A stretch of DNA of 64,000 nucleotides from Amoebidium appalachense (taxonomy: Eukaryota; Protista; Ichthyosporea), in assembly GCA_963693365.1 (NCBI GenBank), contig CAVNZM010000001.1, forward strand, positions 4,666,907 to 4,730,906, written 5' to 3'. Under the pieces are notes generated by a model. That model made no database searches. It had not been told where the DNA came from and saw only the letters and a program-made list of their open reading frames with translations. Each line of letters starts with the position of its first letter. Position 1 is the first letter of the stretch. Position numbers and translations under genes: made by a program. This document shows, one piece after another, positions 26,994 to 27,545 of the stretch.

Positions 26994-27545
26994 AAGTATC
27001 GACTTAGGTATCGACGGGGGAGCTTCCTAGAAGCCCCGTCTCCTGAGTTCCTATCTATATTTTTCTTGCTTCTGCTTACTGCTGCAACTTTAACCCCCGG
27101 CCTTTCCCACTGCCCTTGCCTGCATAAGCAACCCTGCTCGTCTCTGATCAAGACGGGTGACCTACTCATGTTCAAGTGAAACAGTATCTGAGTTGGGTTT
27201 CGTTAACGAGGGGAATAGGTCGAAACTCGGGTACTGTGGATGACGTGGGCCCCCCCTGAGGATGGGCTCTGCTTATTATGCATACTCTTTATGTATGGCT
27301 TGCATTCTGCATCGTGTTATCCGTTTGTTCTTGTGTACTTCGTACTTTTTGACGCATTCAAAACCCCCCCCCTTGCAGCACGGGACCACATCACGCACCT
27401 GCAGGCCGGGGAGACTGGGCGCAGCAATGACAGTGAGCAGGTGGAGGAGCTGAGGCGCAAACTGGCCGTGGCCAATGGCCTGGTGGACTCACTGACCAGG
27501 CAGAAGGCTCAGCTGGCCGGCCAGAAGGATATGCTGGCTATGCAG

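Follow-up and report, generated by a model that had tools for sequence, protein, structure and literature searches.

A predicted hammerhead ribozyme with rearranged core strands in repeats near a Penelope-like element of Amoebidium appalachense

Two repeat families of Amoebidium appalachense, A and B, found in the 64-kb stretch of genomic DNA analysed here (the window), carry a complete hammerhead core, predicted to fold from four strands in a new order and likely to cut the RNA of the element. Judging from the sequence pattern, we consider it probable that the fold works and that cleavage is real, the two taken together, and we are highly confident that the core fold is derived from a hammerhead. 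The first-pass annotation of this DNA had proposed an undescribed ribozyme or a recognition RNA for the reverse transcriptase (RT). A processing ribozyme is the best reading, given the complete hammerhead core and the presence of the same wiring behind related RTs, cleavage itself being predicted; the idea of a ribozyme other than a hammerhead had to be given up, since all hammerhead core parts are present and the fold is a rewired hammerhead.

Repeat families and the proposed arrangement of the hammerhead core

Copy A1 (26993..27365, plus strand), which is truncated at its 5' end and finishes at a C run, holds its core at 27115-27290 and matches copy A2 (56947..57317, minus strand, inverted core at 57195-57031) by BLAST with 95% identity over 382 nt. 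Related sequence extends further upstream of A2, a copy predicted to be dead, in which an 11-nt deletion runs through the 3' strand of stem I and C3. Copy A3 (59067..59216, minus strand) is partial and comprises the 3' part from the GAAA block onward. Family B forms a partial tandem (33999..34850, plus strand) with a period of 449 nt and two cores, B1 (34114-34290) and B2 (34563-34739), and has a further partial copy, B3 (58576-58457, minus strand); the longest open reading frame in the 449-nt unit encodes 91 aa. The four cores lie where they had first been placed, and the claim that both families keep the core is true of A1, B1 and B2 but fails for A2 on account of its deletion. The A and B cores are 81% identical, and B1 and B2 are identical to each other over 403 nt; as these two are the same and A2 is without an intact fold, the window provides two independent full sequences.

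Fragments of sister families were also detected on the plus strand: fragment C (26818..26967) is a 3' part in which the paired C3-G8 is swapped for U3-A8, and fragment D (54640..54730) retains a worn site block and the GAAA block. A third fragment, E (17005..17055, plus strand), consists of a CUGAGGA block whose flanks fit, by eye against the HRIMA-1 alignment, the plain wiring of type SGC hammerheads. Every copy with its 3' end present (A1 to A3, B1 to B3 and C) ends with a C run and a similar tail, and many insertions in the window (A3, B3 and C) begin at a point that leaves out most of the fold on the 5' side. Additional related families are represented by short 3' tails that terminate in C runs, at 36244-36293 and 33727-33766, and the surrounding genome is rich in microsatellites and C runs. 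Other features of the window are a 728-aa open frame (40640-42826, plus strand) with an RVT_1 domain (E 3e-28), belonging to a non-LTR element unrelated to the hammerhead fold; host genes recognised by a THAP domain (21732-22544), a cyclin (52466-53635) and a helix-loop-helix exon (25579-26139); and exons of EF1-gamma (14180-19600; 3 matches, 60-65%).

All 15 hammerhead core positions are present in families A and B (CUGAGGA, GAAA and a GUU site); A1, B1 and B2 carry the core letters CUGAnGA, GAAA and UH, and A2 is without C3. In A1 the site block (27181..27197, plus strand) runs from a stem III strand to U16.1 (27193), followed by H17, which is a U (27194), and by the 5' strand of stem I (27195-27197); the predicted cut falls at 27194^27195 in this copy and after 34195 and 34644 in family B. 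The GAAA block (27216..27237, plus strand) contains the 3' strand of stem II, C11.1 (27221), G12 to A15.1 (27222-27225) and the other stem III strand, and the CUGA block (27253..27276, plus strand) contains the 3' strand of stem I (27253-27255), CUGAGGA (27256-27262), a U (27263) and the 3' strands of the clamp helices. The order site, GAAA, CUGA is the same in both families. The core is flanked by stem I (3 bp in A, 4 bp in B), stem II (5-6 bp) and stem III (13 bp in A and 9 bp in B, with A15.1-U16.1), and the G10.1-C11.1 pair is present. The core positions are identical between A and B in 15 of 15 cases while 39 of 174 columns differ, giving a p of ~0.02 for random columns in what is a post hoc comparison. 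The "invariant words" that had been taken for parts of an undescribed ribozyme are the hammerhead core itself. Its weak features are the GUU site, a suboptimal cleavage triplet, and the 3-bp stem I of A. The linker between stems I and II holds a self-complementary 10-mer in A (27200..27209, plus strand) and a different palindrome in B (34203-34212), with energies of -14.8 and -17.8 kcal/mol respectively for the self-duplex with flanks and of -1.2 and -2.6 kcal/mol for the hairpin.

The distinctive part of the arrangement lies in stem II, whose 5' strand (27159..27164, plus strand) starts at G10.1 and pairs with 27216-27221 through 6 Watson-Crick pairs. It is followed by the 5' strand of helix IV (27165..27172, plus strand), pairing over 8 bp in both A and B with the strand before stem I (27242-27249 in A1). 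Upstream are the 5' strands of the clamp (27124..27134, plus strand), with an outer helix 27124-27130/27270-27276 and helix V 27132-27134/27264-27266, and the 8-bp hairpin VI (27136..27158, plus strand), the end of which adjoins G10.1. From 5' to 3' the order is clamp V, hairpin VI, stem II 5' strand, helix IV, site block, GAAA block, helix IV partner, stem I partner with CUGAGGA, and clamp V partner. The pairing suggests that the chain opens inside the catalytic core, between A9 and G10.1, leaving a core that is predicted to be split between two strands; this opening would be clamped by hairpin VI and by helix V plus its extension, to judge from pairing potential and covariation.

All the helices named by the first-pass annotation can be drawn in the window copies, and its conserved, covarying fold is borne out by four two-sided changes between A and B, located in stem II pair 5 (U-A/C-G), helix IV pair 5 (U-G/A-U), stem I pair 3 (G-C/A-U) and stem III pair 8 (A-U/G-C). 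The "possible pseudoknot" GACCTA/TAGGTC stands as a pairing, with its U-A/C-G change, and its nature, which had not been recognised, is that of hammerhead stem II. The clamp helices are identical in A and B and hence give no covariation inside the window; helix V reaches a low mean pair probability, 0.18-0.32, under a nested-only model. Stem II and helix IV were noticed in the window first and then in the outside loci described below, clamp V and hairpin VI in the outside loci first and then in the window. Tandem G-A/A-G pairs and a U-U in the B arm (34172-34186 with 34238-34248) fit the kink-turn consensus; the A arm, which keeps the GA words without the bulge, does not fit, and no kink-turn is claimed.

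Against shuffled sequences the folding energy of A does not stand out (z -0.74) and that of B does so moderately (z -2.53), by a measure in which two pseudoknotted stems cannot be scored. A core descriptor, written after seeing the sequences, was passed by 0 of 5000 dinucleotide shuffles of each core, and the full descriptor, equally post hoc, matched only A1, B1 and B2 in the window and nothing in 30 shuffled windows. The Rfam search returned 0 matches at gathering score, which bears out the first-pass annotation on this point; one partial Hammerhead_1 match was obtained in A, starting at 27159 (E 4.8, 14 bits versus a cut-off of 34), and no Hammerhead match for B. The strand order falls outside hammerhead types I, II and III as represented by the Rfam models, circularly permuted.

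The variant rows reported from public contigs number 15 for A and 8 for the B core (cut-offs of 3% and 1%, respectively), none of them at a core position, and these contig runs may be the window's own source. T27163C and A27217G, the two sides of the U-A/C-G change in stem II, are both listed within A, in unphased data; their depths are 1419 and 1434 in X20 and 23,423 and 37,020 in X1. Contigs of two runs guessed to be RNA also cover the stretch, a coverage that is not evidence of expression, and contigs cannot show RNA ends. Two X16 contigs ending at 27196, adjacent to the predicted cut, were considered as a sign of cleavage and discarded, as the variant at 27166 together with the 31-letter word length gives the same end. 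One X1 contig joins 27162 to 27259 and seems to come from a variant copy without the arm between the two stem II strands, which looks as though it had been jumped over at the foot of this helix. Among the window copies and contigs, no 5' truncation at the predicted cut was seen.

Reverse transcriptases of the window and of metagenome loci

A broken C-terminal part of a Penelope-like RT is located at 59257..60158 (minus strand) and is 96-97% identical to P0001, a 938-aa protein from a public transcriptome set. P0001 carries an N-terminal GIY-YIG domain before the RT (PF01541, residues 27-79, E 3e-4, a score narrowly below the curated cut-off) and the CxC and DKA motifs, features that agree with the first-pass description of the nearby Penelope-like element as one of the N-terminal-endonuclease kind. 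A CCHH finger is absent in P0001 and present in the metagenome loci L012, L016 and L017, and P0001 lies outside the clade (support 1.0) holding the CCHH loci in a midpoint-rooted tree without named references. By the N-terminal endonuclease (EN+) and the lack of CCHH in P0001, a combination that Craig et al. 2021 give for Chlamys, the window's element is classed as Chlamys-like. Copy A3 shares its strand with the RT and starts ~40 nt past the stop codon of the latter; since C runs are also the insertion target and one such run lies at the junction, A3 could be a separate insertion. We infer from this one adjacency that A and B belong to, or are moved by, the Chlamys-like RT.

An alignment of 13 RT proteins led to the outside set, the best 80 of at least 362 confirmed metagenome relatives. 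When the three blocks were searched without regard to their order, in the 72 loci whose sequence extends far enough past the RT, the order site, GAAA, CUGA (S-G-C) appeared in 7 loci in sense, 1 in antisense and 0 in shuffled sequence. A strict descriptor including helices IV, V and VI matched 5 of 80 loci in sense, 0 in antisense and nothing in 2.9 Mb of shuffled sequence, the matches (L012, L016, L017, L026 and L049) lying 1113-1203 nt behind the RT match. A wider descriptor, drawn up once L062 had been noticed by eye, gave 6 of 80 loci in sense, 0 in antisense and 2 matches in 2.9 Mb of shuffled sequence; a looser one was noisy (13 sense, 6 antisense and 3 shuffled of 80 loci). The split wiring sits 1.1-1.7 kb behind the RT in 6 of the best 80 loci. 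L062 (5140-5310) belongs to another branch and displays the split-core wiring and clamp V, no hairpin VI, and a long insert between GAAA and CUGA.

In the five strict loci 212 of 220 cells pair (96.4%), a level attained by 0 of 500 shuffles; slid controls pair at 35-45%. Two-sided changes occur in five of the six stem II pairs, and no pairing with stem II is open to the strand after CUGAUGA. These loci come from one RT clade and are 82% alike, thus not independent; three of them have the Naiad CCHH finger. A hairpin stands at the position of hairpin VI in 5 Naiad-type loci, helix IV measures 9-12 bp in the six outside loci, and the linker of the Naiad-type loci has 1-3 nt and no palindrome. 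No BLAST match was found between the A/B cores and 82 loci (best E 1.6), so the likeness of A and B to the outside loci is one of topology only. The stem I letters and the 1-3 nt linker of L012, L016, L017 and L049 resemble one SGC-variant row in the available part of the supplement of Eckert et al. 2023.

A second S-G-C form was found on the Chlamys-like side (L006, L008, L009, L013, L018 and L019), at a distance of 133-361 nt behind the RT match; its stem III has 8 bp and its stem I 5 bp, and the partner for stem II is uncertain. Its strand after CUGAUGA pairs with the insert before stem I (e.g. L006 3760-3890); the form is worn in L005, L020 and L081, and several loci show a further CUGAGGA ~160-180 nt downstream. 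Among the 23 loci with at least 1200 nt behind the RT match, 6 carry the split wiring, 6 the second form and 2 a worn version of it, and the other 9, which include L004, a near neighbour of P0001, show nothing. A CUGACGA word recurs with a 300-nt period behind the RT of L010 (1530-1560 and 1830-1860), outside the descriptors. Pattern scans of viral contigs yielded 2 and 4 matches, all without the rest of the fold, and no RT relative was found there.

Known hammerheads and alternative readings

The closest known arrangement is the non-circular type SGC described by Eckert et al. 2023 (PMC10085705), in which the 5' strand of stem II follows CUGAnGA. As set out in the accessible sections of that paper, the block formed by CUGAnGA and stem II is assumed not to be interruptible, an interaction helix of stems I and II was found necessary, and no SGC RNA was found in genomes of known organisms. 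The search pattern used there demands CUGAUGA exactly, linkers of at most 8 and 15 nt and a downstream stem II, so the wiring of A and B cannot match it. A and B share with type SGC (HRIMA-1) the S-G-C order, the core letters, the U after A9 and a helix that connects stems I and II at their distal ends. In contrast to the type as presented there, the 5' strand of stem II and the interaction strand of A and B lie upstream of the site, which splits block C, and the two families have extra clamp helices, are ~170 nt long versus 56-104 nt, and are found in eukaryotic genomic retroelements. Helix IV takes the place of the SGC interaction helix, but is built from an upstream strand. A stem II 5' strand placed directly after CUGAnGA (0-1 nt), by which type SGC is tested, is not what the preferred pairing gives, with some residual doubt for A and B. 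The fold is best read as a type SGC hammerhead whose two ends have been connected and whose chain has been opened anew between A9 and G10.1.

Hammerheads of Penelope-like elements (PLEs) usually have a base between 9 and 10.1 and act as dimers, according to the available text of Cervera and de la Pena 2014 (PMC4209133); a viroid hammerhead also tolerates a base at this place (PMC1636495). A and B resemble the PLE hammerheads of that text in their location in PLE repeats, the extra base at 9/10.1, the G10.1-C11.1 pair and the proposed cutting of tandem precursors, whereas the hammerheads of that text are circular permutations of the minimal or canonical kind, their stem III being short or absent, and A and B have a long stem III and crossed strands. 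For the hammerhead of a Poseidon element, cleavage is reported to have needed protein and to be dispensable for insertion in vitro (PMC11167929, in its accessible part).

The same wiring might then be active only as a strand-swapped dimer or when bound by the RT, a variant that we hold possible though doubtful and that would modify the main explanation without excluding it. The two different perfect palindromes of A and B, with their strong self-duplexes, and the tandem character of family B point in this direction, as would a stem III that seems long for a one-molecule ring of helices IV, III and II; the dimers of PMC4209133 and the protein-dependent case of PMC11167929, as far as those texts go, are in line with it. 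Against it, the Naiad-type loci have a linker of 1-3 nt and no palindrome, and the hairpin found there in fragment D is non-palindromic.

Unlikely, in our view, is that A and B are plain type SGC, with stem II formed by the strand after CUGAGGA-U and the upstream domain serving as an off-switch that sequesters the core. Both families retain U-GG after A9, a feature typical of SGC and PLE hammerheads and partly complementary to the 3' strand of stem II, and this U-G matches HRIMA-1 in the available alignment; the downstream pairing comprises 5 of 7 positions in A and 6 of 7 in B; fragments C (26849-26862) and D (54703-54715) show 6 bp of complementarity of the plain SGC kind; and the flanks of E fit the HRIMA-1 wiring. 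However, in A as in B the downstream option is interrupted after two pairs by a G-G mismatch at pair 3, and its energy (-2.2 kcal/mol in A, -5.4 in B) is weaker than that of the upstream option with its 5-6 Watson-Crick pairs (-6.7 in A, -8.5 in B). Moreover, the strand before stem I has its partner in the upstream strand of helix IV and none downstream, so that the interaction helix that the accessible part of Eckert et al. gives as necessary would be missing, and the Naiad-type loci offer no downstream option. Fragments C and D disagree with each other in stem I and so may not be one family. The SGC-like pairing of C, D and E may be the ancestral state of sister families, or A and B may switch.

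The rewired hammerhead also has to be weighed against a non-catalytic structure for RT docking or packaging, built on a hammerhead remnant, which appears to us quite improbable. The position near the 3' end of the element, the GUU triplet, the copies and contigs free of 5' truncation at the predicted cut, and the dispensability of cleavage in vitro in another PLE (PMC11167929, accessible part) would suit such a role. On the other hand, the catalytic letters are kept across families and distant RT clades, together with the C3-G8/U3-A8 swap; the insertions starting 3' of most of the fold fit ordinary 5' truncation and are silent on docking. That the fold is HDV-like, or represents a new class of ribozyme with no relation to hammerheads, is hardly credible: it could appeal to the empty Rfam result at gathering score and, in B alone, to a word before the 3' strand of stem II that we take by eye to be HDV-like, but every hammerhead core element stands in the right pairing context, the cytosine of the HDV-like word is missing from A, and inspection by eye yielded no P3/L3.

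Further systems resemble the rewired hammerhead in part. Family B, with its 449-nt unit, shares with the non-LTR retrozymes (bioRxiv 10.64898/2026.07.22.740005, as far as that text is available) a short non-coding tandem unit, one ribozyme per unit and kinship to PLE repeats; it differs from them in the wiring of the ribozyme, and its RNA circle is a prediction. The pseudoknot-containing hammerhead of Zhan et al. 2024 (PMC11300833, available part) also has an extra helix and a long-range pairing that replaces stem II; there A9 and G10.1 close one short loop stem, whereas in A and B they are predicted to lie on different strands. Other hammerhead variants are described in the accessible parts of PMC13725137, PMC10162972 and PMC11300833. 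In the openly readable literature, no description of a hammerhead opened at A9/G10.1 was found, and the literature search met the term "Type-SGC" in one paper only.

Regarding the host elements, the available text of Craig et al. 2021 (bioRxiv 10.1101/2021.04.23.441226) reports no hammerhead in Naiads and most Chlamys, using RNAmotif with canonical and relaxed descriptors, which for these groups agrees with the earlier statement that N-terminal-endonuclease PLEs are reported to lack canonical hammerheads. Beyond two cases given by Craig et al., no described hammerhead in Naiad or Chlamys repeats was found in the openly readable literature. The N-terminal GIY-YIG, the CxC and DK motifs, 5' truncation, partial tandems and simple-repeat insertion are common to the elements in that text and to ours, in which the insertion target differs, being C runs.

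Proposed processing and its meaning

We propose that a transcript through tandem copies would fold the core and be cut after GUU, ~170 nt from the 3' end of the element, and that transcripts of the family B tandem would be released as 449-nt units. Helices III, IV and V would hold both ends of the product together and could thereby promote their ligation into circles, and the Chlamys-like RT/endonuclease would copy such RNAs into C runs, regenerating partial tandems. A scheme of RNA copying and partial tandems has been proposed for PLE hammerheads, as presented in the accessible text of PMC4209133. The steps beyond the sequence pattern are of our own deduction, and the cleavage is predicted; by analogy with the Poseidon result (PMC11167929, in the part available), its role in the element may be smaller.

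The wider reading, which we regard as evenly balanced, is that of an active hammerhead whose chain ends would lie inside the catalytic core, outside the six permutations thought possible; it would be the hidden processing ribozyme of N-terminal-endonuclease PLEs, Naiad as well as Chlamys, derived from type SGC by tandem duplication, and sister families of this genome would still be plain SGC. The window contributes a long version, found beside a Chlamys-like element and having a palindrome in its linker, as well as a tandem resembling a retrozyme and sister fragments possibly in the plain SGC state.

If this is true, the rule that CUGAnGA and stem II form one uninterrupted block would be broken, and there would be a larger set of hammerheads missed by all current descriptors. 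The failure to find hammerheads in Naiads and most Chlamys, as reported, would then be a search artefact in at least part of the clade, and SGC-like ribozymes, so far metatranscriptomic and with unknown hosts, would be placed in eukaryotic retroelements.
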